Shown here piece by piece: positions 20,291 through 53,600 of a stretch of DNA of 64,000 bases. Source of the stretch: Psammoneis japonica (lineage: Eukaryota). Location of the stretch: assembly GCA_008632985.1 (NCBI GenBank), contig QPGO01000014.1, positions 696,289-760,288 on the forward strand. Reading direction: 5' to 3'. Below the pieces are notes generated by a model, which was given only the letters and a program-made list of their open reading frames with translations, was not told where the DNA came from and did not search any database. A program made the translations under genes and the position numbers. The number at the start of each line of letters is the position of its first letter. The first letter of the stretch is position 1.

Positions 20291-22116
20291 GTGATTTGAC
20301 AGAGGTGCTGCAGGCCTGTTCCATGTTGAGTGAGTCGTCAAAAAAATTTTGTTCGAGAGAGTCAACTGGGGAGATGGTGGATGCAGCAGCACACAAGTGC
20401 TCTTCATTGGCAAATCGAGCTGAAGTGAGTTTTCTGGCATTGGGGTGGGATGAATGGTGCAAAGTGGGAGGAGCATCATTGACTGAGCTTGAGGAAAAAG
20501 AATCCCAGTTGTCAGAGTCCAAAGAGTCTGCATCAAGGATGGTGGGTGAATCAATGTCAAGAAAATCCTGGATGGTGCCAGCACGTTTGTCGACAGGTGT
20601 GTTGTCACAGTTGGTGAGTTCAGAGTCATTGTTGGAGACCTGACAAATGGGGAGAGCTCCGGAGAATGGGACATGGTCATGCACCAAGAGGATGATTCGA
20701 AGAGTTCATCAAAATGGACATCACACATGACAATCAAATGTTTTGGTCTGATGCCTTCGGGGGGACACACATCAAGCATCCAGCCTGATTGGGTGCAAAA
20801 CCAACATGAATGCCACGAGATCAATGTTGGAGCTGTTGTTTGGTGGTGGTCAGGCGGCTGGTTTCTGGGTTGAGTGATTGACACCTGTCAAAAGTGGCGA
20901 GAAGCCAAAAACGTGAAAATGGCTGATCTTTGGGTGCTTGTTGAAAGCATGAAAGTGAGGTGTAGAGAGAGAGAGAGAGAGAGAGCCATCTTGCAAACGG
21001 GCACCTTTGGCCAGGAGCACATTCAGTGTTGCAATGGCATGGAGGAACAAGTGATGACAAAAATGGGCCAAGAGGCAGGTGTTCATGAGAAGGCAGCAAA
21101 TCACATTCAGTGTGAATTGTCACATCCTTTCACTTGTGCCATTCATTTGTTGGTGACAAGGCACGGCAATCTCATCCTTGATGCCATTGTCAGAACCAAA
21201 AGAAAGGAATTTGTGAGGGAGGAAATGTTGTACAGAGTCAGCTCGAATGAAGTTGACATCCTTCACTTGGCCAACAGCTTGAACTTTGGCCACCCAAGAC
21301 TTGAAAGCCGCAATGATGTTGCTCGTCGTGGGACTCTCAAAGCCACAGATGCTGCAGCAGTGTCCCTTGTGTGCAGCCATGAAGAGATGGTGCAGAAAAG
21401 ATGAGCCGGGGGTGAGAGCAACATTGTGTGGGTTTGGAGTTGTGTCCACAAACACACATGAAAAGTGTGTTCTGGTTCAGTTGGGTCACACTCAACGTGA
21501 TTTTGCTTCCGTGATGCAGCGATGCACATGCTGTCTGAACAGTCAAGCCAAACTTTGCCAATTGTTTCAGCCAAAAGACTTTGAGAGGAACGACAAGCAA
21601 AACATCAAACTGCAAGGTCAAGATCAATGGTGGTGGTCTTTGGGGTAGAGGAGGGTTTGAGAGAATGTGTGTTGGTCTCAACAGCATTGGCATCACTGGG
21701 AGTGGAGTGGTCAGTGGATGCATTGTGGCAAGAGTGCTTGTGACGAAGCATTGGGAAGCTGAAAATGTGTCCATCATCACCAAAATTGAGCTTGGTGATG
21801 TTCGTCATGACATGCACATTGAACAAATCATTGCGGCAAAAGCAGGGACCAAGAACAGATTCCGGTTGAGACTGGGGATGCAACAGACACTTTCAAGGAC
21901 AAGGTTGACAGGGCATCCTTGATCATCTTGGAAATTCAGGGTGATGGAGCTGGCTTTTGCAGCGTGGACAATGGTGCCATTTGCAATCACAACAAGGACA
22001 TGACAATCAATGGGGTTGTCAAGAGAGTTGTGGTGCACAAAATGGGAGGAGGCACCAGAGTCAACAAACCAGCTGCCAATGTTGGAGAGGTCATTGTCGC
22101 ATGGGAGTTGCTGGGG

Positions 22117-22361
22117 TGTTTCAGTCTGCCCGTTGTTGGATTAGCGGGATTACCTCTACGGTGAAAAGCTGCTGCTCTGTGGTGCCAAGGGGGTGTGACG
22201 TGTTTGTGAGTTCGTTTCCTGGAAAGTAAGACTTTGTGCGATGTCTGCGACATTTCTAGGACATTAGAGTATAAGATCGAGAGGTCCACTCGAGGATCCT
22301 CTCACAATTCGAATAGATCATGTTTTGATCATTGATTTATTCTATCGACATGGTTTTAGCA
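22117..22361 (+). repeat. 5' LTR (245 bp)
   Basis: TGTTTCAGTC...TTTTAGCA, direct repeat of 28641-28883. Confidence 0.95.
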
Positions 22362-22395
22362 CTTTGTCAGAGCCAGTCTCCGACCACCTGAAATC

Positions 22396-24018
22396 ATGGC
22401 ATTTGCTGCAGCTCAAACCACATCGTTCTTCAAGGACAACGATCAGATGGGACTGCCCAATGCGACTCATGTGCAGCCAGCGGTTGAGGGTCTTGAGCAT
22501 GTGAATGAACTCACGGACTTCGACGAGGATGGTCTCCAACAGTTGTTCGAGAACCTCAAACGTCCTGGAGGCACTGTTCCGGATCCGAATCCTGGTGCGG
22601 CTGCTGGTGCGGTCATCTGAACCCCAGCATTTGTCACAGGTGCCAAGAGCATGATGCGTCTCAAGGTTGCTCGTCAAGCAGCTCAATTCTACGAGACCGT
22701 CGGTCGCGACTTAACAGCTGCCAACATGCGTTGGAACCCCATCCTCAAGAACTTTCAGGAGGCTTGGAAGGCCCTCAAGGAGCGCAAGGCCAAAGACGAC
22801 CCAGACGTCCCCAGGATCTCCAAGTCTCTACCAATTATGAAGTGGACCGAGGCGTTCCGTGATCACCTTCAGCAAGTGATTGGCAACAGGACAATCCCGT
22901 TGTCCTGCATAACTCGTGAGACGGTCGCGGTTCCAGCAGATGCTCCTGCCTTAGCAGCGAACCAACTGCACTCCAACGAACACGGTTCCCTTGGAGACGA
23001 ATTAGTGGCACGTGCCAGCCACACCCATCCGTTGTTTCGAGAGGATAACGCATCCGTTTATTGTGCACTCAAAGAAGCGACTCGTGGCACCTCCTACGCC
23101 GCTTCGATCAAGCCTTTTCAGCGTAGGAAGGATGGACATGGAGCGTGGGTTGCTCTCACTGCTCAACATGCAGGCGAAGACAAGTGGGCGGCCGAACTCA
23201 AGAAGCAGGAAGAGTTCATCCACAATCGCAAGTGGAAGGCTCAGTCGAATTTCTCTCTTGATCGGTTCATTGCGCAGCACCGTAATGCCTTTGTCTCGAT
23301 GCAACAATGTGCGGAGTACGTCACGCACCAACTTCCGAACGAATGTTCTCGGGTCACGCATTTGTTGGATGCAATCGAAACCTCCGATGCACCCCTACAA
23401 GCCGCAATGGCCCTAGTCCGCAATGATGCCGGGCCGAACGGCAAACGTAGCGTCTTCGAGGCGGCTGCGGCGTGCCTTCTTCCCTGTGACCCCATGGCCA
23501 AGAAACGCGCCGCAAAACGCCCTCATGCCAAAGTGTCGGGCATTGACTCCAGCACCATCAAATCTGGCATCGGCAATTCTGGGGTGGAACTTCGCTGCCA
23601 CACTCAGTCTGAGTACAAGAAGCTCACCTCTGAGCAGAAGGTAGAACTCAAGGAATGGCATGCAAAACAAGGGGCCGGATTGCAAAAGAAGAAGATGGAA
23701 GGCAAGAACCTGGTGGAGGGTCGCGGTCACAAGAACATCAAGAAGATGATCTCAGAAGCAGTGGCCTCTGAGCTAGCTTCTCGTGATAAACAAGATCAGC
23801 AACCCAGTGCCTCTGACCCCGATGATGCCCAAGCCGGTGCCTGCCTGCTGTCGTTGGCACAGGCAGCATCTGCGTTGGCTCCTGCTGCATCGCAACCCCT
23901 GCTGCCACCACCTCCTCCGGCGCCATCTGCTCCGCCTGCCCAAGCCTCTTCTGTTCAATTTAAGGCTCCGGCTGTCATGCTTCAATCCATTCTGCGGCGC
24001 GCTGGTGCCAAGAATTGA
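22396..24018 (+). pseudogene. gag: Copia gag with an in-frame TGA at 22618-22620
   Basis: ORFs 22396-22620 and 22651-24018 share a frame; motifs GNRTIPLSCITRE, DGHGAWVAL and FSLDRFIAQHRNAF resemble CoDi gag. Confidence 0.85.
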
Positions 24019-24084
24019 AATGAAGGGACGGCGCTGCATTCCCACGTCTCCTCGCTTGAGGGGAGAAAGTGCGCCTTTTGTGCC

Positions 24085-27000
24085 ATGGAATTGCAGTCGT
24101 CGATTCCCAATCGCTCTGTTTTAAAATTTGTCGATCGTCACATGGTCTCCGATGTCACAATGGATGCAAGTGACGAGACCATGAGCAGGAACGAGATGCA
24201 CACCGAATTGGATTCGCATGCCAACATGGTTGTTGTCGGCAGAGGATCCCACGTCTTGAACAACACTGGTCGCACCGCCCAAGTCAGCCCGTTCAATCCA
24301 GAATGCAAATCGATGAAGGACGCAAGGATCATTGATGCGCTGCTGGCACACGACTGCCCGCATTTGTTGAAAACACATTTGTTGGTCCTTCACAATGCCT
24401 TGCATGTCCCGGCAATGGATCGCAACCTTCTGCCACCCTTTGTGCTGCGAGAAGCAGGGGTGACAGTCAACGACGTTCCCAAGATGCAGATCAGGGGACA
24501 AGAACCAACGGAGGATGACCATGCCTTGACACTCACGGATGTGAAGGTGCGGATTCCTCTGTCATTGTGGGGAGCATTTTCCTGCTTCCCAACCCGTTGT
24601 CCGACACTCCAGGAGATGAGAGACACCGAGGATGCACTGGTGCTCACTCCGTCTGGACACACCTGGAATCCTCACTCAGACTCCTGTGCGCGCAATGAAG
24701 AGAGCATGTTGGACTGGGAGGGGAACATGTCAGACAAACGAGACCGGGTGAAAATCCTGGTGGAGGATCTCCTGGACAAAGATGAAGAGATCTGACTCTC
24801 CTTGACCATGTCGAGTGTCGAGATGCGTTTGATTGATCACAACATGACGTTGGTTGACCATTTCGAAGTGCGGGATGACTTGAGTGGGACTCGTGAAACC
24901 ATTCGTGAGGTGGACAGTTCTCATGCTGTTCTGTGTGATCTCTCTGTCACTCTCGACCCCGTTGCACTTGTGGAGAACCTTCAGGATCGCCGCAATGTTG
25001 GAGTTTTTGCCGCTTCAGTTGGGTCCACGACAGTGGGACACGAAGATGACTCGGGTCAAGATGACAATGTCGACTTTGACATTTTCGAGGATGTCCAACT
25101 TGAAGACATTGTTGACGACCTTGTGGAGTGCTTCGAGTCAGACCCCGAGGTCAATGTTGGTGGGACCACGGCATCAAAGTCCAAGGGTGCATCCCCAGAG
25201 CATCTATCTAAGATCTGGCGGATGAGCACAAAGGATGCCGAGCGGACGATTGACAACACCACCCAACCACTGCGTCGCTCTGAGGACCCTGCTCTTCTTT
25301 GTGGACACCTTCTTTGCAAGTGAGAAGGCTGGAAAATCCACAAGGGGGCACTCGTGCATGCAACTGTTTGTTGCGGACAAAGGATTTGTCCATGTGGTTC
25401 CGATGCGTGCTCGATCAGAAATCCCTCAGGCTCTCAAAATGTTCACGAAAGAAGTGGGTGCACCAGAAGCGATCACATGTGACAGTGACTCGGCACAGAA
25501 GTCTGATGAAGTTCGACAATTCCTTCACTCTGTCGGCACCAGTCTACGTTTGCTGGAGGAAGGAACGCCATGGTCGAACCGTGCTGAATTGCACATTGGC
25601 CTGCTCAAGGAGGCCGTCCGGAAGGATGTGAAGGCCTCGCTGTGCCCTCTCCCATTCTGGGACTGCTGTTTTGAACGGCGAGCTTGGATCAACAACATGA
25701 CGGCTCACAACCCATTCCAACTTGAGGGGAGAAAGCCACACTTCTCCGCAACAGGGGAGGAGGGTGACATCTCAAACCTTGCCCAGTTTGGTTGGTGCGA
25801 ATGGTGTTACTTCCGCGAACACACTGACCCCTTCCCATTCAACCGAGAGGTCCTGGGTTGTGCACTGGGTCCGGCAAAAGGGGAGGGCAACAAGATGGCT
25901 CAGTGGGTGCTGAAGGGAAATGGCAACGTCGTCCCCAGGCGGTCCGTTCGACACTTGACAGCCACCGAACTCAACAGTGACACTGAGAAGTGCAAGCGCA
26001 ACATTTTTGATCAGTGTGTTGAGTCACGTTGGGGTTCTGCCACTCACCCTGTGTCGTCCACGGGAAAGCAGTGCACTCCGCATGGAGACATCAACGAGAA
26101 GCCCCGGGTCCTTCCAGAGTTTGATGATCCCGTGGATGCTGCAGGGAACGCTGCCGACCCCGTTCCACTGTGCGACAAGCTGATCCACGCCAAGGTTGCC
26201 CTTCCTCAGGGTGACAAGCTGCACAATGCCAAGGTCATTGGTCGCTCTGTGGATCCTGAAGGTCGCACCATGGGCTCTTACAATGACAACCCCATTGTGA
26301 ACACGCTTGTGTACAAAGTCAAGTTTCCTGACGGGGAGGTGAAGGAGCATGCGGCCAATGTAATCGCCAAGAATCTACTCTCTCAGGTCAACTCCAAAGG
26401 CTGCACACTCAACGTTTTTGACAGTGTCCTCGATTTTGCCAAGGATGACACCGCATTGACCAAGGACAACATGTGTGCCAAGGTTGGCAAACGGTCTTGT
26501 TTGCGTAAAACGACGTGCGGCTGGAAGTTCCTTGCGCTGTGGAAAGACGGATCTGAGTCGTGGGTTTCCTTGAAGGACATGAAGGAGTCCCATCCAGTGG
26601 AAATGGCCGAATTTGCCAAAGCGAGAGGCACAGATGATGAACCGGCTTTTCGATGGTGGACACCGCACACACTCCGGAAGCGTGATTGCATCATGTCAGC
26701 GGTCACGGCTCGTGTGCGGCGTGTCACTCACAAGCATGGAGTCAAGCTGCCCAACACTGTCAAGGAGGCACTCGAGCTTGACCGACAGAATGGTGACAAC
26801 CTGTGGGCAATGGCAATTGAGAAGGAGATGCGTGACGCGGGCCTTGCCTTTGAAACACTTGATGACGACACACCAACTCCTGTCGGTTGGTCCAAGCAAT
26901 CGGGTCACCTCATCTTTGATGTCAAGATGACCATGGCAAGGAAGGCTTGGTGGGTTCTAGATGGACACAAGACTTCCAATCCAGAGGGCTCAACGCACGC

Positions 27001-28450
27001 AGGTGTGGTTTTGCGTGAAAGTGTGCAAATTGCTCTAACACATGCTGCTTTGAACGACGTTGATGTCATGGTGGCGGATGTTCAGAATGCATGTCTGCAG
27101 GCCCCGTTGTCACAGAAGCATTGCATCACATGTGGCGCCAAGTTTGGCATCGAGAACGTGGGCAAGCGTGCCCTTGTTCGTCGTGCATTGTGTGGAGGCA
27201 AGTCAGCAGGACAAGACTTCTGGAATCATCTACAAGCCTGCATGTTGCATGTCGGATTCAAGCCTTGCAGAGCAGACCCTGATGTTTGGATGCGTGAAGC
27301 GCTCAAGGCGGATGGCAATGAGCATTGGGAGCACGTCCTGTTGCATGCGGACGATGTGTTGTGTGTCTCCAACAATGCTGAAAGGATTCTGCGGGAGGAA
27401 ATTGGCAAGCACTTTCTGCTGAAGGAGTCCTCAACAGGTCCTCCTAGCTTGCATCTGGGAGGTCATCTTTGCAGGGTGGAGCTTGAGAGTGGGACAAAGG
27501 CGTGGGCCTTCAGCTCTTTGCAATGGTCTCAGGCATCCGTGAAGAACGTAGAGACTCACCTGCTGGAGAAGGGAACGAAGCTGCCGTCCAAGGCTTCCAC
27601 CTCTCTCAGTGGCTCGCATCGTCCGGAGGTTGACACGACACCCAAACTGCAACCAGCGGAGGCAGCTCATCATCAATTGCTCATTGGTGTCTTGCATTGG
27701 ATGGTGGAGCTCGGTCGCGTTGATGTTTGTCTGGAAGTGTCCATGATGTCCTCTTGCCTTGCTCTGCCTCGAGAGGGACATCTTGCCCAGGTGCACCATG
27801 TCTTCACCCACCTCAAGAAGCATCACAATACGGAGATGGTGTTTGACCCCACCCATCCGGACATTGACGAAGAGTTGTTTGCACGTCGCGATTGGACTGC
27901 CTCCAAATTCGGTTTGGCCATGAAGGAGGAGATGCCTGCTGACATGCTCCAGGCCAGGGGATCAGGCATGGTCGTACGAGCCTTTGTCGATGCGGACCAT
28001 GCGGGTGACTCCATCACTCGTCGGTCCCGCACTGGATTTTTGATCCATCTGAATTTGGCGCCCGTCCATTGGATGTCGAAGAAGCAGACGAGCATCGAGA
28101 CGAGCTTGTTTGGATCAGAGTTTGCCAGCATGAAGCAGTGCATGGAGCACATCTGTGGGCTCCACTGCAAGCTTCGAATGATGGGGATCCCGGTCGTCGG
28201 ACCGGCCCATGTTCATGGAGACAACCAGTCTGTCCTGGCAAACACCTCTGTCCCCAACTCAACGTTGAAGAAGAAATGACACAGTCTGGCGTGCCACTTT
28301 GTTTGTGAGCATGCGGCCCGGGATGAGTGGCAAACAGCGCACGTCAATGCGCACCTCAATCCCAGCAATCTGTTGACCAAGGCGCTCCCTTCAGGGGAGA
28401 AGCGCAGTTGGTTCGTTAGAATGACATTGCACTGTCTTGGAGGGAAGGTG
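24085..28450 (+). pseudogene. pol: Copia pol (protease, integrase, RT, RNase H) with stops, a frameshift near 25295 and Tyr-to-Cys/His substitutions
   Basis: ELDSHANMVVVG (PR); TPWSNRAE (IN); ADVQNACLQAP, RALCGGKSAG, LLHADD (RT); FVDADHAGD, GSEF, GDNQSV, NPSNLLTK (RH). Confidence 0.92.
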
Positions 28451-28640
28451 GATTGGGCCGTGTCGGCTGAACCACCTGCCAGTGCGGAGGGTTTTGTTGG
28501 AGTTCCCTGCCGATGGAGTGGTTTTGTTTGGATTTTCCACTTGATGGGTGTTTGTGTGCAGTTTGCCATCGCATGGTGTTGACGAATCCCTTTGTTGGCA
28601 ATCTAGTTTGATGACACAATCAAGTCTAGATTGAGGGGAG

Positions 28641-28883
28641 TGTTTCAGTCTGCCTGTTGTTGGATTAGCGGGATTACCTCTACGGTGAAAAGCTGCTGCT
28701 CTGCAGTGCCAAGGGGGTGAGACATGTTTGTGAGTTCGTTTCCTGGAAAGTAAGACTTTGTGCGATGTCTACGACATTTCTAGGACATTAGCATAAGATC
28801 GAGAGGTCCACTCGAGGATCCTCTCACAATTCGAATAGATCACGTTTTGTTTGTTGATTTATTCTGTCGACACAGTTTTAGCA
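28641..28883 (+). repeat. 3' LTR (243 bp)
   Basis: Direct repeat of 22117-22361, preceded by a polypurine tract. Confidence 0.95.
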
Positions 28884-30399
28884 GGGGTCAGCATTGGGTG
28901 GCATCCTTGGCCATGCGTGCAACTTGACAGAGTGCTTTGTTGGTGACTTGATCAAAGAGGGGGAGCAAAGGTTGCTCTAGAGCTCCAGTGCTGAGCTCTG
29001 AGACGACAGAAGAGTTCGTTGATGGCAGTGCTTCAAGAGGTGTGAGGGCATGCGTGTCATGCAGGTCCAATGGAAGTGTCGGTGCCATGGTGGTCAGAGT
29101 GATGGCAGATCCAACAGGGTGTGCCTCATGAGAGGGCAAAGGAAAATGTCAGCGTCCTGGGGATCAGAGAATCTGGTGCAGGGCCAGCAGCATCAATGTG
29201 TGCATGCTGGAAGGCAGGGGCATGTTTGGGAAGATACAAAATTGTCATGGTGGAGGACAAGTCCATGCTGGAGTCACAGTTGTGACATGCAAGAGGCGGG
29301 GGACTGGTGTTGTCAGAGTCAATGGATTGAGCATCATCAACGACATGTTCAGTGTCAGAATCATCAAGCAGTTCCTGCAGGGACAGGGTTGGCATGGATC
29401 CATGAGTAGAAAGTGAAAAACAACAATCAAATGGGTCGGAGCTGAAAAATGAATCTTTTGAGGAGTCATCACAGGGCAACAGGTGTCATGATTTGAGTGA
29501 TGGGACAGAGTTGGACAAGGATGAATCACAGGAGAGCATGTCGTCATCACCAGTGCAAGCAGCACAAAAAACAATTTTGTTGTCTGTGGTTGGACATTGT
29601 TGCAGTGGGTCTTGGTGGTGTGACAGCAAGAGCAGTTTGTTTGTCTGCCTGCTGTAGCTCAGGGCATTGAGGATGAAGGTGCCCCTTTTTCTTGCAGTGA
29701 AAACAGGTGACTTTGCTCAAATCCCAAGTGGGCTTCTTGTCTGAAGGTGGCTTGGTTGTGCCATTCTTCAAGTCTTGAAGGCGGGAGCGACATTCAGTGG
29801 CGCCATGGTTCCATTTGCCACAACACAGTTGCAGCTCCTCAAGTGCCAAAATTTTCCAGAACATGATGCAATGTCCAACATGTCTGACTGGTGGGTCTTG
29901 TCCAAGTGTGTCCACAGCAAGGCACAGAGGGCTTTGTCAGCTGGTTCCAAAAGTGAACGGAGGGGGGGGGGGGGCAGATTGAAAATTGTCAAGGACACCA
30001 TTGAAGTCCAGAAAAGATGCAAAGGTTCTGCGCAAGTCATTCAGAAATGAGCAAAATTTTCGTCTTCTTGTGTGTGGATTCTGATTGTGATGCAGCATTC
30101 CAAGATTTGTGTGGGATGCATGCTTCATGAGTGAGTTGGCCAACAATTCCAAAGAGTGCTCTGTTGCACCAGTGGTGCAATTGAGATGCTTGGATGTGAT
30201 GGGTGAGTCGTCGGATGAAGAGCATCCTGATGGCAAGGAGTTGGGTGTCTGTCTTGGCAAGAGAGCAAGGCGGAACAGAAGTTTCATGTAGAGAGACTCG
30301 GCCTCTTGTGTCATGTCCTTGAAGCGGTCAAGTGCAAGGGTGCCAGGCTCACAAGCCGGGTGTTGGCAGAGGAGACTTTCAAAAGATGACTTGGCCAAG

Positions 30400-33040
30400 C
30401 CGACAATGTAATGCAGCTAAGCGGAGCATTTGTTTGCATGACAGAAAAACGGAATGAGAGCCCATTGGACATCAAAAAGGGCACCAATGGTCACGAGTTG
30501 AACTTGTGTGTTAATGTCGCTGTCCAAAGAGTCAGTGACATCGTGTGTGACTGAAGTTGTCAATGCCAGTGGAGGTGACATTTCAGCAGCTGGTGTTTGT
30601 GGCAGAGAAGCAAGTGCAGCAGTGAGTGCATCATCCATTTCGGTTGAGATGGGAGTGACAGCATGCATGAAACAGAGGATTCTCAGACTTGGAAGAAGAT
30701 GGGTCAACGTGTGACAGTGCTGGGGTTGCCTGATCCTCAGGAGAGGAAAGAAGCAGGAATTCTTCAGGAGGACCCAGCAACATGGCTGCGGCAGACACGA
30801 GTTTGTCCATGGGGAGTGTGGACCCCCCTTTCGTTGGAGCATCATTGTCATTGGAATGAACAGTCTCAACTGTTGCGCAGATAAAATGGGGTGACAAGGG
30901 ATGCTTGGAAGATTGATGTCCATTGTTTTCACATGTCCTTGGTTGGCCCTTGAAGTGGCAATCAACCTCTGGATTGGGGAAAGGCTTGGAATGGGTCATG
31001 CAATGACAATGGCGGCAGGAACGCAATGATCGGATTCCTGGTCAGGTGTCATCTGGATGGATTGCTTCAACTTGGAGCAATGACAATGTTTGCGGGGTTG
31101 TCTTCCAGAAATGTGAGCAGAAGTGGTGCTGGAGGCTGGCTCAGAAGGTTTCTGAATGCGGTTGTGCAAAGAGCCCAGATCAACCTCCAGAATGTCCAAA
31201 GAGTCATCAATGGATGTCAATTGGTCGTGGATCACACAGTCACAGACATTGTGCTTGGGGTCAGAAAAATCTTTTTTGCCATTGTCAACCTGTTCTAATG
31301 AAGTGTCAAGATGAGCATGAGAGTGCTGCAAGACACAACAGTTGGATTAGATCTTGATGGTCTCTATCTGGAGATGATCTGTGCAAAACTGGGCTTGGGC
31401 AAGGCACTCTTGGAGGGCACAGTGGATGCCAGCTTTGACTTCAGCAAGGTGAAGTTCCTCAGGAGTGGGCAAAGGAGAAGCCAGAGTGCACTTGACAGAG
31501 GCAATGGAGCGATTGATCACGCATTTGTTGTGACGTTGGATGGTCTTGGTGTGCTTGCAAGATGGCTGAATGGATCTGGCAGGGGTCTTGGGCAAAGACA
31601 CATCTTTGCCATTGTGCAGACCATGGACAGACAAGGGGGTGTGATGCTCAAAGTCCAGGTTGTTGGCTGATGTGTCAATGGTGCAATGGATGGTGCAACA
31701 AGAGCAATGAGTGGAGACCTTGTTGTGCTGCAAATTTAGGGTGGGTGTGCTCCTTGGTGGGTCGCTCATGCAATGGGTGCAATGATGACATGAAGAGCAC
31801 AAACCAGCATGCTGGACAACAGAGCCAGTGTCAACATTGTGACAATGGTCATGAGGATCAGCCATGGGGACATCATTGACAGAGCATCCGTGGACCTGAA
31901 AAAAACATCTTGCAAAGCAAGTGCGTGCAATGACGGCTTGCAAGAGGAAGCTTTGCGAGACGCACAACTGGCGCTCCGCTTGAAAGAAATGGTCTCGTCA
32001 GACCAAACCGGAAGTGTTGCAACCCTGACAGAAAAAGGGCAAGAGAAGGGTGCTCACCTGAAGGCAACTGAAGTGATCAAATCTGCGCACTGACAGGAGA
32101 GAGCAAGCCAAGGCCAGAAACATCCTGCAGCAAAGTGTGTTCTGGATGTTGTGAGAGATTCTGAGCCAGTCTCAGAAGAATCAAAGCCAGGATGGAAAAT
32201 GATGGATTCTGACAGGTTGATGAAACTCCATGGATTGAAGATACAATGTCTTCAGTCATGAGGTTCCAACATCAGAAGGGAACATGGAATCCCTGACAAA
32301 GGAGGGGTCGCAGGTGATGGGGGAATGTTGCTCAGCAGGACACCTGCTGAGGTCTTGTTGTTGTCACAGAAAGCTTCAATGTCAGTGCAGCAGTGCATGG
32401 TTCTTGCAATGTTCAAAAAGATGGAACAGAAAACAGATCAAAGACAGGACTCCTCTGCAGGCTCCCGCGTGGAAGGACAAAGTTTTTCGGCCAAAGACCG
32501 GCCCAGCAGCACAGTCAACTGGGGGTTTCCCATCAAGTGTGATTGTGCATCCCCAAAGGTCACACTGTCTTTGAGGACTGAATCATTGCTGCACCACACA
32601 CAAGGCACAACTCACCTGCAATCTGCTGGGATCCAGCCAAGTGTGCCTCATGCTCCAAAGCTGCACCCAAGGAGCTTGGGCTTGTGGTGGTGGTGCACAA
32701 ACATTTTACCTGGCTGTGCCACACCCCTGATGCAGCCCATGCTGAGTGCTCTCATCCAGTGCCAGTCATCTGCTCCTCCTGCCAAGAAGACTCACAAGAC
32801 CCAGCCATGCCAGCTGGGGCTCTCTGGGCATGGGAGTGCCCCAGCAGCTCAGGCTCTTCTTGCTGCCCACACCACCACCAGCAGCACCAGGTGTGCAGGA
32901 GCCAGTGCAGCGAAAGCAGCCAGCCCAGCCACCATTTCCCCTCTCCTCATGACAAAAGCATGGTGCTTCTTTCAAAATATCTTGATTCGCAAAAAGCTTC
33001 CTGAAAATCTGGGAGGGTGAGGCGGGTCGAAGGCAGAGAG
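30400..33040. mobile_element. Degenerate repeat-derived sequence, TpA/CpG depleted (may be the 5' part of the outer Copia)
   Basis: Compositional signature only. Confidence 0.5.
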
Positions 33041-33385
33041 AGAAACAGCTACTCTAGCTTCTACTAGAGAGTAGCCTGCCTCGCTCTGCGGTGATCCGGA
33101 ACAATCGTGACTGAATCATCAGTTATGTAAACTCATGACTCAGTCTCAAACGCAAAACGCAGCGGGTGGGCAGTGCCACCATGACACGTACCGTAACACT
33201 TTACAGCATTGCCGATTGCCGTTGTGTCATCAATCATTCATCAGAGCATCTTGCGTCAGCAAGAACGACCCATCCTCTGTGTAAACGAAACATGTCACAA
33301 ATAATTCACACCGTTAAGGTCATAAACTGAGAAAAGAAAACATCTCTCTCTCTCTCTCTCTCTTCCTCTCTCACACACCCGAAAC

Positions 33386-34612
33386 ATGTCGAAGAACAAC
33401 TGCAAGCACCGACGTCCCCGCCCTGCGCCTTCACTCGTGGTTATTTCCACCGTTCTTCTTCTAGTCTTGCATTCCGAAGCATTTGTTCCACACCATCAAG
33501 CTCCGAACCTAAGACCGTGGGGGAGTGAAAGAGTTTTCTATTCAGAGGCAATTGCACAACAAAATCAAGACACACCCTCACCTGAACAAGACGACGAGGT
33601 TGTTGCTGCGGTACGAGCTCCGCTCAAGTTTTTTGGTCCGTATCCAACCCTTGCTTTACGATTCCCGAACTTGGCCACAACGGCTCAACGAGCTAAAAAT
33701 GTCACGGGTGTCAGCCTAGATTTTATTGTAGATACGGCTGCCAATGTCAACACAATCAATGGAGCAGTCGCGCAAGAATTAGGCCTCGAGCAACAAGGAC
33801 AAGCTCTTCCAGGTGTCGGTTCCGCGGGGGCAATTCAAGGTGGAGACACGTACGTATTGGGTGATGCGGAATTGGAAGGAGTACTTGATGAAAATGATGA
33901 GCCCTTTGTGTTCATGACTAATTTGACTGCCTCGGCGTTGCCAGTAGCCAATCCTGCTACCGCCGGATTGTTGAGCATGGCGTTTCTTCAGTCCTTTGAG
34001 GGCGGTATAGAATTTTGTTGGGGGGGCAGCCATGGTGATTACGAAGCGAAGCCACCATCTCTAACTTTTTATGGCGATTCTGTTGAACAAATTCTTCAAG
34101 ATCGGACTCGCGTATCATTTGATCGAGCTCCAGTCACTCAACTGCCAATTGTGACCATCAATGTTAACGGAGTTTCCATGCCCGCCTTGTTGGATACGGG
34201 AAGTCCAGTGACGGTTCTCAATGCACAAGCCGCAAAGCAAGCTGGTGTTGAAGCCACCACTCTTCCCGCAGTGGAAAAATCAGGGAATCCCTTTTCCAGC
34301 TTTGCCAATCGTTTCCAACAAGCCCAAGCTGCGTCTCGCGGGGACGTCTTAACAATAATGGGAACTGACGGCAAACCAACCAATCTTGTAAAGTCTGCAG
34401 TACCTCCAACTGTATCGCTGGAGGCGAGTACGAATGATGGTAGCAATGTCGGCTTCGGGGAGACTCCTGTGTACGTTGGTGATTTACCTGGATTGGAGGC
34501 GCTCAAGGGACTGGGTGTCAATGCGCCACCGGCAGTAGTGTTGGGAATGGACATCCTGCGACAACGGCCAAAAATGCTGCTACGTGCTCAACAGAATGAA
34601 GTTTGGTTTTAG
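33386..34612 (+). CDS. Aspartyl protease with two retropepsin-like domains, probably plastid-targeted
   Basis: FIVDTAAN and ALLDTGS catalytic motifs, VVLGMDIL; hydrophobic signal ending SEA-FVP, like the diatom ASAFAP motif. Confidence 0.8.
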   Translation: MSKNNCKHRRPRPAPSLVVISTVLLLVLHSEAFVPHHQAPNLRPWGSERVFYSEAIAQQNQDTPSPEQDDEVVAAVRAPLKFFGPYPTLALRFPNLATTAQRAKNVTGVSLDFIVDTAANVNTINGAVAQELGLEQQGQALPGVGSAGAIQGGDTYVLGDAELEGVLDENDEPFVFMTNLTASALPVANPATAGLLSMAFLQSFEGGIEFCWGGSHGDYEAKPPSLTFYGDSVEQILQDRTRVSFDRAPVTQLPIVTINVNGVSMPALLDTGSPVTVLNAQAAKQAGVEATTLPAVEKSGNPFSSFANRFQQAQAASRGDVLTIMGTDGKPTNLVKSAVPPTVSLEASTNDGSNVGFGETPVYVGDLPGLEALKGLGVNAPPAVVLGMDILRQRPKMLLRAQQNEVWF

Positions 34613-44288: not shown

Positions 44289-44940
44289 TTTCAGAGCTTG
44301 CTAAACCGAGAGCACGACAGGGCGTCGTAACGCGACTGAATAAAGTATATTGCCTATGGTTCATGTAGTGTTACGACTCCTCCAGGCACATTTCACACTT
44401 CTTGCTTTCTCAAGTATTCCTCTTTCCGTTCCACTGTTTCCAACCCATTCCTCTTTACCAAAGCTTCAATGCAGTTCTGAGCTTGCTAAACCGAGAGCAT
44501 GACAGGGCGTCGTAACGCGATGCTTATGAATAGAGTATGTTACCTATGGCTTCTGTAGTGTTACGACTGCTCCAGGCACATTTTAAACTCCTTGCTTTCG
44601 AAAGTGTTCCTCTTTCCATTCAACTATTTCCAGCCCGTTCCTCTTTACCAAAGCTTCAATGTAGTTCAGAGCTTTTGCTAAACCGAGAGGACGAGAGAGC
44701 GTCGAAACTAGATACTACTGACTAGAAAGTATGTTACCTATGGCATCCGTAGTGTTACGACTGCTCCAGGCACATTTTCTACTCCTTGTGCTTTCTTAAG
44801 TATTCCTCGTTCCGTGCCACTATTTCCAACTCGTTCCTCTTTGCCAAAGCTTCAATGTAGTTCAGAGCTTGCTAAACCGAGAGGACGAGAGGGCGTCGCA
44901 ACTAGATGCTACTGACTAGAAAGTATGTTACCTATGGCTT
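44289..44940. repeat. Tandem repeat, unit about 185-195 bp, about 3.4 copies
   Basis: TTCAGAGCTTGCTAAACCGAGAG...TGTTACCTATGG...GTAGTGTTACGACT...CCAAAGCTTCAATG recurs at ~44289, 44475, 44665 and 44861. Confidence 0.92.
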
Positions 44941-45289
44941 CCGCGAACGGTATATCGATGCTATGGGAGACACCGGCCAAACGATTTCCAACAATGCGAC
45001 CACATTTCACACGATGACGACTAATTCAAACACTGAGGAACACTACTATTGTTACGCTTAGACAGTGTCGGTCTGCTGGCTGATATAAGCTTTGGCACCG
45101 ACATGGCCTCCGCCTGTTTTCATCAGTTGAAGTTTGACAATCTCGGCATTCACTTCCACGGGTGACATGGTTCCGTTGCTTCCGATCTTTACCAATACTG
45201 TCGCCTCTAGTGGACTCAAAATCCCGGATCCGTCGGGTATTACACAAGATGGATCAGAGGAAACAGACCTTCATCAAAGAGGAGAAGAA

Positions 45290-47209: not shown

Positions 47210-50200
47210 CCCTGATTATCATAGCATAGAAAATCTGTGGCACAGATTTGGGGTTCAGATTTCTTACAGATTTTCAAGGGGTCCGCAGAAACAGTTACAG
47301 ATTTTCAAAAAGCACAGATTTGTGCCACTAAAACTACAATGCAGCTGAAACTAAAATAAAAAAACTACAGAATTAACCCTCCTCGTCGAAAAAACTACAG
47401 AATTAACCCTCCTCGTCGTCCTCCACGTCACTTCCATCAAAATCCTCCGACTCCTTGTATGCAGTCACCGCGTCTTCGCCCGCCGCATTGCCAATTAAGC
47501 GGACTAGTTTTTCTCTGTACTCTGTTGCTGTTACCGCTTCAACGATGGCTGTGCACGTCGGGTCGGGCTCATCCGTTGGATCCTTGTAGCCAGCAACCAA
47601 GAAGGACTTGTAAACAAGTCCCTCTGGCACCTTCTCCCACGCTTCCACTGTCCACTGTGCAATGAGTTGCCTCGATGGAGCAATCGGATTCCCAGCGGCG
47701 TTAAGGGGGGCTTCCAGCATATACAAGTCATACAGATCCCGATAGAATGCCTTCCATATTTTGTTGATCAAAATGTCAAGAGGCTGTGCTTTGGGCGTGA
47801 TTCCTCCCGCCATTATCAAGAAGTGGAGCTTGCGGATAAGAGCAGTCCTGTCTTTGACGCATTGCTTTGAATGCCCTTTGAAATCGTCGACAAGGACGCC
47901 ACCGGCGTTTCCGTTCTCCTTTCCCTCTGAATCAACGACTCCGATGCCTGGAAGAATAACACGATCCAACACATCATTTGTAAGCTCACCTGAAGAGTTG
48001 GCAGTCTTTGACACTGTCATCACAATCTTGTCGTCGGAGGGATACTCATTGCCGTTGCTGTCTTTCGTGCGCTCGGTTATCTCATACATGATGGTGTTTC
48101 TTCCATATGGCGGACTCACAGGCGTGCCCTTCCAAATCACATACGGCCGCAACTTGTTGTTCTTCTTTGAGAAAGTGATGCTTAATTGTACAGTGAATCG
48201 CTCCTTCTCCTTTCCTCCGGTTCGAATGTTGCGCCTTCCAGACCCCTTCTTGCCCCAGGTATACTCCCCCACTGGCTCTCGCCACGTTGGAACATGATCG
48301 GTGTTGCAGAATGCCATGGGAGGGACAGCAACATATTCACCGGGAACGCCGTCAATCCTATGAGGGTGCATAATGCTGTTGCATCTTGCATTGATATCCT
48401 TCACCTTCTCTTCCCAACCATTGGGGAGCTTCTGCCCAGCTCCCGATTTCCGAGTATAGGACAAGTTGCACCGCCTCTTCAATCCATAGTAGAACCAAGT
48501 TTTCAACTGCTTCATTCGGTTCTGCCCTGGTCGGATGAACGAGGGACTGAGCTTCATCACCTCCCTGAAAATTATCAAACGGGTTATCCTACATCCCGTA
48601 CTGCTCAACTCGGCAAGCCTTTTCTCAAGCTTAGACTCCATTGCCTTCAAGACGTTTCCAACCTTGTTGCCCCGTTTCTCCTTGGCGTGGACAGTAGTAG
48701 ATACAAGGTACGCTCTTCGTTCGCTCGGAGAGAGAGCCTCTAATTTTACGCCGTGAAGCAACAATCCCTCCTTTCCTTTCTTGTATGTATCTGAAACCAA
48801 TTCGTATGTCTTCTTGTATATCTTATCTTTGCAAGATCCGCTCCATGATGTGTAGAAGTTATTTCGGATACGATGGGCAAGGTCATTAACTTTAGAGCCA
48901 CTCGAGATTGCCTCATATACAGCAATGCGCCACTCGTTGGTTTGTTGCTTTCCTTTTCTGTTGTATAGCCCGTCCTTCTCGGTGGCTTTTTGAAGAGGAG
49001 TCTTGGATTGCTTGTCCTCCAAATTTTGAGATCGCTTCTTGTAACGTTGTTTGAGCGTTTCTTCTTCTTGAGCCGCCTCAATTTTGAAATGTGTGCGGCT
49101 CCTCCAAAGGTTGATTGCACGGTCACACTTCATGTCACATGCAATCCTATGTGACCAAAGTGAGGATACACAAGCAGTATTAGCATCATACATAGAAAAA
49201 ACATCCAAGCAGTACCGCAGTGGTACTTACCGAGCCTCCGCATTAGCAAGAGTAGCAACAGCCCCAGCCATTTCAGCCTCCCATTCATTGTTCATTTCCT
49301 GAAACTTCTCTTTGTCCCCTCCACGATCAGGGTGTGATGCTGCTAGCCTTTTTCGGTTCTGTCTTTCGGCCTCTTTAGCAAGGTGCGCCATATCGGTGTC
49401 ACTGGTGGCACGACTACCGCCAAGGACGCGGTAGTATCCAAGGATGTCCTCAAGATTATCGCTCTTGATGCCACACTCGTCAAGAGTTGCTCCTTCAAAT
49501 ATCTCGAGAGCTGGGGATTCTTTCCACCTTTCCTTCTCGAGATCCGTTGCCATCTCCAAAAGTTCAGCTCCGCCTTGACGACCCGACCGCCAGTCTCCGT
49601 GTTGTGTAATAGTAAGATGCTTGGATTTAGAAGCATCACAGGAGATGCTAGCTGCCCCTCTTTTTCTTGAGGTATGAACTGCTTCTACCACTGTGTCACT
49701 ACTGCCGGTACCGCACTCGTCGTCATCGTCGTCATACAAATTTATGACACTTCCTCCTTGTTCCTTCTGGCTTGAGTTGGTATAGTCTGACGGCCTTGAC
49801 TTGTTGCTTGGCGGCATCGAAGAACGGGTGGCTTTGTGAGCGACCTTTTCCTTCCTCTTCTTGCGGGGAATAGTCCTGAAGAAAGACTGCATGGTCCATT
49901 TACCATTGTTACCACCCGAGTAATTTGCCTTTCTCTTCGCCTTTGTTTCACTACTACTAGCATCAGTACTGTCATCTGTAGCTTTGGCGTTCGAACTGAA
50001 GCTGTCATGGATGGGCAAGGGGGCGGTTTTCGTCTCGTCAAACTCATCTTTGCACAGCGTTTTGAACGTGGCAAGAAATACTCTGTACTTGATCGGTTTG
50101 TATGGCGGAACACAAACCTTACAAAGAAGGTTCTCCCATTGTGCTATGGTGATGAGCTTAAGTTCCTCCACACAGTCAACACCCTGTAATTCAAGCCATC

Positions 50201-50549
50201 GGTCGATTTCCTTTGTGCAAGAAAGGTTCTTATCGCAGAACCACTTTCTTACGGCGGGTACCGCCCACACTGGCTTCGAGGGGGCTTCATCCGAGGCCGT
50301 ATTCTCCTTAGATGCCATCGTTGCTGCAAAGAAATGATGTGCCGGAATGAGTGTGTCTCTTTCCACTCCTCACTTTGGCGCGGTCAACGTACATCCTACG
50401 TGCATTTTTAGTACAGAGGGGGGAAGGACAGACGGGGTCCAGATTCCAGATTTTCGGTTCGAAAAACTTACAGATTTTATTCGGCCCCTAAAATAAACTT
50501 ACAGATTATATTTTTCGGCACAGACTTTCTACCGGTATGATAATCAGGG
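47210..50549 (-). mobile_element. Apparently intact pogo/Tc1-mariner superfamily DNA transposon (3340 bp)
   Basis: TIRs CCCTGATTATCATA (47210) / TATGATAATCAGGG (to 50549), extending imperfectly to about 30 bp; TA target duplication at 47208-9 and 50550-1; repeated ACAGATTT subterminal motifs. Confidence 0.93.
47403..50318 (-). CDS. Spliced DDE_1 (pogo-type) transposase, about 943 aa, with N-terminal SAM-like and J domains; intron 49147-49230
   Basis: Catalytic motifs NTDHVP, LVDDFKGH, QPLD; KERFTVQL; a GTAAGT...TAG intron joins the 379-aa and 601-aa ORFs in frame; YYRVLG...HPDRGG. Confidence 0.85.
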
Positions 50550-50659: not shown

Positions 50660-53600
50660 TTGTTCATCTGCACTTCTCTGCAATGTGAATTGCTTACACA
50701 AAGTGCAAAGATTTGTGCAACAATTGTGGTGTTGAAGGGATCTTTCTGAAAGGTGTGCACAGAATTGGGAAAAGATGCTTCAAGGATTTTTTGATTTGCA
50801 GCCACGCGAGTGATGAGAAGAGAAAACAGTTTTTTTTGTGAGCCTCCAGCCTCCCCAGAGATTGCACACACACATGCACACACAACACTCACTCTGTCAT
50901 GACGGAGTGCACAACAAAAGCTGCAGCATGCACAAGCATTTTAATTGAGGTGGAGAAAGCAAACAAAAAATGCATTGAAACTGCGCTGTTCAACTCCCCA
51001 AGCCCTCGCAAGGGCTCTTCTGTCAAAACACCACTTGCTCTTTAGAAAAGCCACTGTGCTGTTGTCAAAAGAAATAAAATCATTGTTGACATGTCACCAA
51101 ATCCAAAACACTGCAAGAAGCTGGAAAAGATGTGACAGTCATTGACAGCATCTTTCTTCATGAGGATGATCTCCTGCAAGAAGCAGAAGCAATGAGAGCA
51201 TTGTGCCGAAATGACTGCCTTTGAACAAGCTTCAAGTGCAACACAGAGTTGTGGGAGAAGCTCCACTTCACCTGCCTCTCTGGGGTGCATTTGCCTGGTG
51301 TTGTTGACAAGACAGTGAGTCAAGTCAAGCAAAAGCAAGCACAAGCATTGAACAAGGACACCCTCCCCAAGTCAATGGAGGCAAGGCTGCAGCTGAGTGT
51401 GGGTGTCTGTGGTTTCCATGTCAACCAGCCCCTCTGCCCCCACAGCTTGTCCTGCCAACTGCCACTGGCATCCACCACAAGCAATGTTTTTTGTGGCCAT
51501 GATGCTCAGACAAAAATCTGGAGCAACAAGCCATCAGGAAAAGATGTGATGGAGCTGTTGAACATGTGCAACAATGCAACAGACAATCATGAAGCACCGC
51601 AGTGGAAAATTTGGTGCCACAAGCAAATCTTCAAGAAGGGGCTCAAAGAACAAGTGACAAGCCTTGAGCAAAAAGGAGCTGGAGCAACCTCACCCCCAGC
51701 TGAAATTCTGGCATTGCCACCCACAGTTGTTTCACAATTTTTTAGCAGCTTTGCTGTCAGCCAAGCCAGGCAGTTTGCTGGCAGCACTTTCTTTACATTG
51801 ACTCTTCATTTGCCTCTCCAACTGTGTTGACAGTGCCTCAGATGAAGGCTGGTCAAAGCAAACATCTCTTGGACAATTGTTCACCTGCATTGTGCAGCAT
51901 CATTGGAAATGTTCTTGTGGTTGCTGTCCTTGATGAGACATGACTTTGCTCATGAAAAATTGATGACAGGCCTGTGAGGGTTTGTGACAGTGCCACATGC
52001 ATTGAACAAAATGGCAAGCACACTTGTGCCCTTGCCTTGCAAGCTCTGCATGAGTTTGAAAAATTTGCAGTTTTCTCAACACCCAGGGAGCAACCCCAAG
52101 TGTCAACACATGGCAATTGCAGAAAACACAAGAGCACAAGTTTTTGAAGGATGTGCTGGGCCAGCATGGACACTTTTGACCACTCAACATTGCCCTCATT
52201 TTTGCTCCTGTTCTGCATCTGGCTTGTTGCAGCATCTTGATTTGGTGGTTGTGCTGAGAATGCATGGTTGGGCCAAACAAGCCACACTCTGTCTTGCATT
52301 GCCATGCAGTTCAAGGTGGTGACAATGCCCTCTCACATGGCACAGCCCCTCTGTCCATGTGTTGGGAGCTGCCATGTGAAAGCAAATGGAGCAGAGTGGT
52401 TGGGACAAAGAACTGCAAATGGCAGCAACAAAGCTGAACAACAACAACAATCACTGTCATGTCAGGACAACAGGTTGCAACACAGTTGGGTGATGGCTGC
52501 CAGCTGCCATGGCATTGTCTGTGCCACCATTCTTTAAAAGCACCACAAGCTGGCCCACACACAGACATGACAGGAAAAAGAGGAGCACATGATCTGTCAA
52601 ATGAAAAAAAAAGCCACTGCACTTGTTGCCACAGTTTTTTCTTGATGACAGGCCCAGCAACTGGGTGGTTTGAAAGAGCTGAAGTGTCAGTCAAGAGTGC
52701 TGAAATTGTCCCCAACATTGTTGTTGAACAAGCACAGCTCTGCACACGTGCCAATCTGTGGCTGAGAAAGGTCATCTTTGGCAGAGGAGCTGCAGCCCTC
52801 AAAAGAAGCCAATGTGAGTGAGCCAGTCAAGCAAGTCCAGCAGAGCTGCAGCCAGTGTGAGCATGGCTGAAGTGCCACGTCAAACATGTCCACCATGAAA
52901 GAACATGGGTTCAGCAAAAAGAAGAAACAAGCTGCCAGATCAATGGCATTGGGAGTGTGTTTGCAAGCCAAATGGTGAGTTTGGAGTCAGCAGTGAGACC
53001 AAATGCATGCTGGTCAGCAAGCCACAAACTCTGATGACCATGACTGCTGAGTGGAAGGACATCTCCAGTGCACGCAAAGCAGAAGAAGATCATCAGAGGA
53101 TCAAAAAACAAACAAAAGAGCTCATCAAAGTCTAAAAAAATGCCAACACACACAGCAGTGGGGCAGTTGGCGGCACTTCTTGTCAAACAGCAGGAGAGAC
53201 AAAAGACTGCCAAGCACAGGGTGGAGGAGGGCAATGACTGCAGTGCACAGGCCCTGCCAGAGCAGTTGCCTGTAAAAGTGACAGCAGCACATGTGGACAA
53301 AAATTGCATGCTGGCAGGTGTGTGCACAATGTGCCTGCAGCGGGTTGTGCCCCATCCAGTGCTCTGTGGCTTTTGTCATGGTGGGGAGCATGCAGCACAC
53401 ACTGCACTGACAGCTGGCAGATGCCAGTCAGATGCCTTATGATGAAGGCCATCCCAAGGTGCTGAGGTGCATGGCACAACTGCAAACATTGTTGCATGCA
53501 AGCCCACATTGTGCCCCATGTATGTACTAGGCGCTGAAAAAGAAGATGTGTTACGACTTCGTCGTTGTGAAAATTATGAGCTAGTTTAGAGTAGAGAAAA

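Follow-up and report, generated by a model that had tools for sequence, protein, structure and literature searches.

Can the two long terminal repeats (LTRs) of a single retrotransposon insertion be read as a record of how transposon DNA mutates in its host, and which processes would have left that record? The question is raised by a 64,000-nucleotide stretch of the diatom Psammoneis japonica (GCA_008632985.1, contig QPGO01000014.1, positions 696,289 to 760,288 of the forward strand), which is the scope of the whole analysis and is referred to below as the window. At positions 22117 to 28883 of the window lies a dead LTR retrotransposon of the Ty1/copia type, nested in an older retroelement. 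We consider it probable that, after integration, this element was mutated by two dinucleotide-specific transition processes, one acting on TpA and one on CpG, both directed at transposon DNA while host genes are spared.

Differences between the two LTRs

The LTR pair was detected by a repeat search as direct repeats, which were then aligned globally:

22117–22361, + strand: 5′ LTR, 245 nt, TG...CA ends; TA observed-to-expected ratio (o/e) 0.66, CG o/e 0.94
28641–28883, + strand: 3′ LTR, 243 nt, TG...CA ends; TA o/e 0.61, CG o/e 0.85

The alignment contains 14 substitutions, comprising 12 transitions and two transversions (T/A at 22196 and A/T at 22328), and one indel of 2 bp at 22266–67. All 12 transitions sit in pyrimidine-purine (Y-R) dinucleotides and amount to nine events: three CG versus TG/CA differences (22131, 22200 and 22321), three TA versus TG/CA differences (22247, 22270 and 22344) and three reciprocal differences with TG in one copy and CA in the other (22180–81, 22330–31 and 22351–52). 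An earlier note on this DNA had listed the same differences, three of each kind with two transversions and a 2-bp indel, and the global alignment reproduces that list exactly. Y-R steps span 116 of the 245 LTR positions (47%), and the probability that all nine transition events fall inside them is P = 0.0012.

A control spectrum was compiled from 16 of the 33 repeat pairs found on contigs that carry related elements; those left out were 12 identical pairs and five others (the second hits of L009 and L059, and L036, L039 and L075). The control pairs, which are mostly contig-end overlaps and not proven LTR pairs, yielded 92 transversions and 59 other transitions, with 20 differences of TA type, 27 of CG type and none that was reciprocal. 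In the same classes the LTR pair yielded two, none, three, three and three, a significantly different spectrum (Fisher P = 1.5e-4).

Both LTR copies and both strands carry mutations in the alignment of the pair, and since both LTRs belong to one insertion, the differences between them arose after integration. For the LTRs this upholds the earlier proposal that the changes took place in chromosomal DNA on both strands, the post-integration origin following by logic. The proposal that LTR-divergence dating would overestimate the age of the insertion also holds. The Kimura two-parameter distance between the LTRs is 0.061, against a background of two transversions and no other transitions, that is, a pairwise change of 0.8% (at most 1.6% outside Y-R steps), so that a naive LTR age is inflated roughly 4- to 7-fold.

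Direction, context and regional pattern of the changes

The remaining parts of the element and its immediate borders are:

22113–22116, no strand: GGGG of the left flank sequence, candidate 4-bp target-site duplication
22362–22375, + strand: primer-binding-site-like block CTTTGTCAGAGCCA, kept by 18 relatives as GTTTATCAGAnCCA; the window copy has TA>TG
22396–24018, + strand: gag, 540 codons, with a premature in-frame TGA at 22618–22620
24106–25294, + strand: first part of pol, from the relatives' match, in the same frame as gag, with an in-frame TGA at 24793
25295–28444, + strand: second part of pol, following a frameshift near 25295, with an in-frame TGA at 28277
28633–28640, + strand: polypurine tract GAGGGGAG, immediately before the 3′ LTR
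28884–28887, no strand: GGGG of the right flank sequence, second copy of the candidate target-site duplication

Changes in gag and pol were polarised with 42–47 outgroup elements. For the nucleotides of pol, 42 of the 79 fetched loci were used, namely those with an open reading frame (ORF) of at least 1200 aa. For amino acids, columns were accepted where at least 20 of 22 relatives agree (22 picked from 120 listed), giving 595 columns of which 93 are changed. Over both parts of pol, 29 columns hold a conserved Tyr; three keep it, 16 have become His, nine Cys and one Trp. Conserved Arg is changed in 14 of 47 columns, in 13 of these to His, Gln, Cys or Trp, and other conserved residues are retained (His 12/12, Trp 18/18, Lys 29/29 and Cys 6/7).

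The nucleotides give the same picture. Among 35 conserved TAs in pol, 21 now read CA and 12 TG, and two are kept; 15 of 26 conserved CGs are kept, four now read CA and three TG. The two largest classes of change at conserved columns are T>C (99) and A>G (74), and both depend on context. T>C affects 53 of 68 conserved Ts before A and 7–11% of those before C, G or T, and A>G affects 32 of 52 conserved As after T and 4–9% of those in other contexts. At CpG, C>T is found at 19 of 98 Cs before G and G>A at 39 of 139 Gs after C. The direction of change in gag and pol is thus from TA to CA or TG and from CG to TG or CA. The opposite direction, from TG or CA to TA as in repeat-induced point mutation (RIP), had been named by the earlier note as speaking against its proposal; it is absent from the interior, where none of 180 conserved dinucleotides (131 TG and 49 CA) has become TA.

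Leave-one-out comparison of pol with its relatives gave the following frequencies:

TA-type deviations: window pol 3.67%; relatives' median 0.42%, maximum 2.19%
CG-type deviations: window pol 2.45%; relatives' median 0.41%, maximum 1.09%
Other transitions: window pol 3.46%; relatives' median 3.33%, maximum 6.47%
Transversions: window pol 5.38%; relatives' median 4.91%, maximum 10.16%

The excess over the relatives is confined to the TA-type and CG-type classes, and the TpA process is far faster than the background substitution rate. Across 79 related elements, TA o/e ranges from 0.46 to 0.84. Five copia relatives from metagenomes (L010, L013, L018, L061 and L062) combine a CpG o/e of 0.21–0.36 with ordinary TA (0.50–0.81), the last four of them lying at 0.21–0.31 and 0.56–0.81, respectively; this composition implies CpG decay without TpA loss in those hosts.

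Loss of TpA is markedly uneven along the element:

22362–22650: TA o/e 0 (no TA, about 15 expected), CG o/e 0.66
22651–24018, gag ORF: TA o/e 0.31, CG o/e 0.84; only partly TA-depleted
pol: TA o/e 0.04 over 24019–25234 and 0.09 over 25235–28279, CG o/e 0.67–0.77
flanks: TA o/e 0.03–0.06, CG o/e 0.21–0.26

No TA occurs anywhere in 22362–22689, and the relatives hold 7–20 TAs in a 360-nt stretch covering 22362–22650, that is, the primer-binding block and the true start of gag. In 12 relatives the LTR-plus-untranslated region (UTR) has a TA o/e of 0.69 and the coding sequence 0.59; the studied LTRs are near this family norm. Conserved TAs are kept at four of eight positions in gag and three of 39 in pol (Fisher P = 0.011), and overall TpA loss amounts to about 80–90% in the interior and roughly 10–25% per copy in the LTRs. 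CpG decay, in contrast to TpA loss, is even: the CG-type excess is 2.16% in gag and 2.45% in pol, similar to the CG loss per copy estimated for the LTRs. The equal excess in gag and pol argues for one age for the CpG decay of the whole element. A mosaic of ages, in which pol would be old and the LTRs and gag young, is unsupported, given this equality and the lack of any other excess in pol. As a record of the mutation spectrum, which is how the earlier note had taken it, the LTR pair therefore carries the same TA and CG signature as the interior but misses the full process, with TA nearly erased from pol and near normal in the LTRs.

Loss of TA also bears on how the element is recognised. All stops in its frames are TGA (the premature ones at 22618, 24793 and 28277 and the gag terminator at 24016), as expected if TpA loss destroys TAA and TAG. 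The conserved start of gag (22396–22650) resembles a 5′ UTR, but the relatives vary there at third codon positions, and their gag ATG lies ~35 nt past the LTR; here the premature TGA causes an ORF finder to overlook this true start. The second part of pol matches RVT_2 weakly (25.4 bits, under the Pfam cut-off of 31.6). Among the matches listed, all 120 relatives carry PF07727, at 55–66% identity and lengths of about 1450–1530 aa; one cluster of them contains a Fistulifera solaris protein, and none was found in viral contigs. The TG...CA LTR pair, the polypurine tract and the conserved block after the 5′ LTR are structural features of Ty1/copia elements.

The regional pattern extends over the window, which as a whole has o/e values of 0.28 for TA, 0.58 for CG, 1.49 for TG and 1.51 for CA. 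A map in 250-bp windows (n = 256) is bimodal with sharp edges:

Depleted, 121/256 (47%): TA o/e 0.08, CG 0.21, TG 1.76, CA 1.84
Normal, 96/256: TA o/e 0.57, CG 0.96, TG 1.15, CA 1.17
Mixed, 39/256: mostly the element interior, with TA gone and CG largely retained

The depleted 47% is old transposon DNA. Its blocks contain retroelement remnants. Of the 96 ORFs in them that reach 110 codons, only one had a Pfam match. Two such remnants flank the studied element:

21808–22140, − strand: left flank, older retroelement remnant (Pol_BBD, E = 5e-10); TA o/e 0.03, CG o/e 0.26
29550–31997, − strand: right flank, belonging either to that retroelement or to a second old one; a frame interrupted by four stops, with a CCHC zinc knuckle, rich in His and Cys and poor in Tyr

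The sequence directly adjoining on the right (28884–30000) has a TA o/e of 0.06 and a CG o/e of 0.21, and the studied element is inserted into the older minus-strand remnant. TAs remaining in depleted DNA are enriched in TTAA (43/158 versus 42/893 in normal DNA), and RTAY is nearly gone (ATAT 1, GTAT+ATAC 2 and GTAC 2, versus 49, 137 and 78 in normal DNA). Low-complexity (TG)n was rejected as the source of the TG/CA excess, as the depleted sequence read at 60001–61500 is complex and not microsatellite.

Host genes, which include a melibiase, a DnaJ protein, a GT92 glycosyltransferase and Med4, fall in the normal windows. The best named relatives of the DnaJ protein are all from diatoms (43–47% identity; top match overall 56%), as expected for a diatom-like stramenopile host that has no near sequenced relative in the database. 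Codon junctions are positions where TA loss can be silent. At these junctions the host genes have a TA o/e of 0.55 (220 observed, 399 expected) and a CG o/e of 0.89, and the pol of the element 0.05 and 0.50. Since codon-junction TA is spared in the host genes, the TpA process is aimed at transposon DNA, and a genome-wide mutation bias was rejected as its cause.

Timing, strands and competing explanations

In the reading we favour, the first process would convert TpA to TpG or CpA (A:T to G:C) in transposon DNA, most likely by enzymatic adenine deamination in DNA, and the second CpG to TpG or CpA, most likely by deamination of 5-methylcytosine in methylated transposons; the enzyme in each case is one we infer. 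The nine LTR transition events would be products of both processes, arising in chromosomal DNA on either strand of either copy. The TpA process is regional, close to saturation in pol and over the opening ~250 nt of gag and slight in mid-gag and the LTRs, with CpG decay even along the element. The interior is mutated on both strands (T>C 53 and A>G 32 on the sense strand), and its changes, like those of the LTRs, would postdate integration. Strand-coordinated runs of CA or TG along pol were also considered, and a hand count gave no clustering (16 runs versus about 17.6 expected).

The reciprocal sites need particular attention. The earlier note had explained them by independent hits on opposite strands of an ancestral TA or CG. 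Double hits are retained in our interpretation, but uniform rates fail to account for them and shared hotspots or another route are needed: the LTRs share nine intact TAs and nine intact CGs and show six one-sided losses, and a uniform loss rate of 0.14 per copy predicts 0.25 reciprocal sites where three are observed (Poisson P = 0.002). A two-step change within one copy (TG>TA>CA) was estimated to be too rare, there being no other transitions. The simplest reading is that the saturating process observed in pol reached some of the LTR sites. An ancestral TA appears much likelier than an ancestral CG at all three sites, judged from a loss in pol of 94% for TA and 27% for CG, and they would most likely be TpA hotspots mutated in both copies, once per strand.

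Several observations, the excess of reciprocal sites over what uniform rates predict among them, weigh against this account. If the loss in pol is chromosomal and followed integration, the near-normal TA content of the LTRs requires protection or a targeting rule, and sequence context at ±1 does not separate mutated from unmutated LTR sites. In the interior the changes are moderately biased by strand, T>C outnumbering A>G on the sense strand by 53 to 32 (P = 0.03), and a relaxed column set mirrors this with 27 Tyr→His against 11 Tyr→Cys (P = 0.014), His being predominant in the 3′ part of pol. Finally, the ancestral state at the nine LTR sites is not fixed directly by comparison with another copy. 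No second copy of the LTR was found within the window, a 24-nt LTR pattern had no matches in viral contigs or in metagenome contigs, and on alignment the LTRs of relatives show no similarity to the studied LTR upstream of the primer-binding block. The ancestral state at each of the nine sites is accordingly one that we infer.

The strand bias and the retention of TA in the LTRs (o/e 0.61–0.66) would also follow if most of the interior TpA loss preceded integration, through deamination of RNA or single-stranded cDNA during reverse transcription, comparable to what APOBEC3 or ADAR do to retroelements, with the LTRs protected by becoming double-stranded almost at once and the LTR differences alone being chromosomal. 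Depletion begins 5 nt inside the edge of the 5′ LTR and leaves no TA in 22362–22689, the bias (53:32, and 27 His against 11 Cys) is strongest near the 3′ end of pol, and CpG decay is equal across gag, pol and LTRs where TpA loss is unequal, all in keeping with such a history. A single-strand editor, however, yields one direction only, and here both are common, 38% of the changes being A>G on the sense strand; ADAR-like editing of genomic RNA as the sole cause was rejected on the ground that T>C is the larger sense-strand class. Mid-gag, though internal, is only lightly mutated, old flanking elements are saturated on both strands, and the LTR differences bear the same signature although they arose after integration. 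The measured precedent, in Bigelowiella natans, works on integrated chromosomal DNA (Mettrop et al., bioRxiv 10.64898/2026.01.13.699255). We regard a pre-integration origin of the interior changes as unlikely.

That reciprocal sites outnumber what uniform double hits would give (P = 0.002) could alternatively mean that the LTRs were not identical when the element formed, being recombinant or having ends converted from other copies or cDNAs, so that some differences, notably the reciprocal ones, are inherited polymorphisms. Patchy TpA loss along the element would agree with this, as would the target-site duplication. In Ty1/copia elements the duplication is typically 5 bp, and here a 5-bp reading is mismatched (TGGGG on the left versus GGGGT on the right), with GGGG, common to both sides, unambiguous for 4 bp only. 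On the other hand, both flanks are remnants of old minus-strand retroelements with like composition and GC skew, which fits one simple insertion, the CG-type excess of 2.16% in gag and 2.45% in pol argues for a single age, and pol shows no excess of other substitutions. An origin of this kind seems to us distinctly improbable.

A sequencing or base-calling artefact, in which modified bases in transposon chromatin are misread as TG or CA in place of TA or CG, is highly improbable. A caller confused by two-strand modification at a palindromic dinucleotide could report TG for one LTR and CA for its partner, and the effect is indeed limited to transposon DNA. The assembly is nevertheless accurate, with long unbroken frames in host genes and a single frameshift over the 4.3 kb of pol; LTRs of the same element retain TA, the survival of TTAA against the near extinction of RTAY points to a context rule, old elements carry stops and frame breaks as well, and the Illumina-based B. 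natans experiment shows a real process with such a signature. Ordinary neutral decay with a chance dinucleotide pattern in the LTRs is scarcely credible: the sample of 14 substitutions is small, but the Y-R placement (P = 0.0012), the comparison with repeat pairs of related elements (Fisher P = 1.5e-4) and the same signature in about 120 polarised interior changes all speak against it.

Beyond the two processes that we favour, a bolder version may be entertained, although we consider it doubtful. Here a genome defence based on adenine deamination at TpA would act massively in the diatom, guided by small RNA or by homology to pol and 5′ gag and sparing the LTRs. It would be an ancient 'reverse RIP' shared across stramenopiles, alveolates and Rhizaria, erasing Tyr codons and TAA/TAG before background change is detectable.

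Other features, implications and known systems

The window contains further features whose composition differs from that of the depleted blocks. An island of ~375 bp with normal TA and CG (53519–53892) lies within a depleted block and has the ends TGTATGTA...CACGTACA, and its flanks hold no duplication that matches. Either a solo LTR or some other short, recent insertion could explain it, one that, like the studied LTRs, escaped TpA loss. On the minus strand, an intact ORF of 607 codons (47406–49226) encodes a DDE_1 transposase domain; its TA and CG content is ordinary, and so is that of the neighbouring ORF at 49230–50369 (−), which indicates that hypermutation did not reach every transposon-like gene of the window. 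A plus-strand ORF of 428 codons with Asp_protease_2 and gag-asp_proteas domains (33326–34609), situated in a block of normal composition, may be either a host DDI1-like gene or a piece of a young element. A TA-rich normal block holds a 190-bp tandem repeat (44290–44943; 3.4 copies, 84% matches) whose copies differ by 25 transversions, seven other transitions, ten TA-type and six CG-type changes. Scans for tRNAs and Rfam families across the 64-kb window gave no matches.

Long stop-free frames are common in the depleted DNA and are no evidence of genes; with TAA and TAG destroyed, TGA is almost the sole stop left, so long ORFs there prove nothing. Transposon remnants become hard to annotate for related reasons, with Tyr turned into His or Cys and Arg lost, as the single Pfam match among 96 ORFs from depleted blocks illustrates. 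In such genomes, LTR divergence would give ages several-fold too high if TA and CG sites are left unmasked. The uneven mutation within an element of a single age offers a handle on how the process is targeted.

TpA hypermutation has so far been reported only in B. natans, an unrelated alga, in a 2026 preprint. The openly accessible literature that was searched gave no account of such hypermutation, or of an extreme lack of TpA, for any diatom, and the B. natans preprint was its one hit for the phenomenon. If our interpretation is correct, TpA hypermutation extends to another major lineage, the dominant one in marine primary production, and has shaped about half of the window sequence.

The closest known system is that of B. 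natans (Mettrop et al., bioRxiv 10.64898/2026.01.13.699255), where TpA-specific A:T>G:C hypermutation is described for integrated DNA of nucleocytoplasmic large DNA viruses (NCLDV) and virophages. Two of the integrated viral regions mutated, in mutation-accumulation lines, about 1000-fold faster than the genome outside them, with a de novo rate of 1e-7 to 1e-6 per site per generation; nearly all changes were A>G or T>C, each of them at TpA, and only some lines were affected. The same source gives 124 clusters in about 95 Mb, a TA o/e of 0.45 for the NCLDV region and an over-representation of the reverse-transcriptase and DDE transposase Pfam families among coding sequences poor in TpA, and its authors propose an ADAT2-like DNA adenine deaminase. 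The two cases agree in an excess of A>G and T>C transitions at TpA, giving TpG or CpA according to strand, in a regional action that targets foreign or mobile DNA and passes over host genes, and in a long-term footprint of TpA depletion with CpA and TpG enrichment. They differ in the host, a chlorarachniophyte (Rhizaria) there and a diatom (Stramenopila) here, and in the target, which here is an LTR retrotransposon and old retroelement debris making up 47% of the window. Depletion is deeper here (TA o/e 0.03–0.09 versus 0.45 in the NCLDV region of B. natans) and is coupled with CpG decay, and the process is known here from its footprint alone, whereas de novo mutations were measured in B. natans.

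The CpG component resembles the decay of 5-methylcytosine in vertebrates, plants and diatoms, with CG>TG/CA changes on both strands in LTRs, gag and pol and a CG o/e of 0.21 in old elements. Such decay is expected here, since diatom transposons are CpG-methylated (PMC2806351, PMC9998398). It accounts for only one third of the LTR events, those of CG type, and leaves the TpA loss wholly unexplained.

With fungal RIP the element shares transition hypermutation of transposon DNA, loss of coding capacity and a dinucleotide skew with sharp regional edges. RIP, however, turns CpA/TpG into TpA by C>T, whereas TpA is destroyed here (0/131 TG and 0/49 CA became TA). RIP is triggered by sequence duplication; the LTR pair, the sole duplicated sequence in the window, is the least mutated part.

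Retroelement editing by APOBEC3 or ADAR is likewise a deaminase-type, context-dependent hypermutation, and in both cases the interior is more affected than the LTRs. APOBEC3 and ADAR, however, edit in a strand-specific manner (G>A, or else A>G confined to one strand), unlike the changes described here, which run in both directions, and TAG-type contexts, favoured by ADAR, are here found among the surviving TAs in depleted DNA. Nor can editing before integration produce the differences seen between one LTR and the other.

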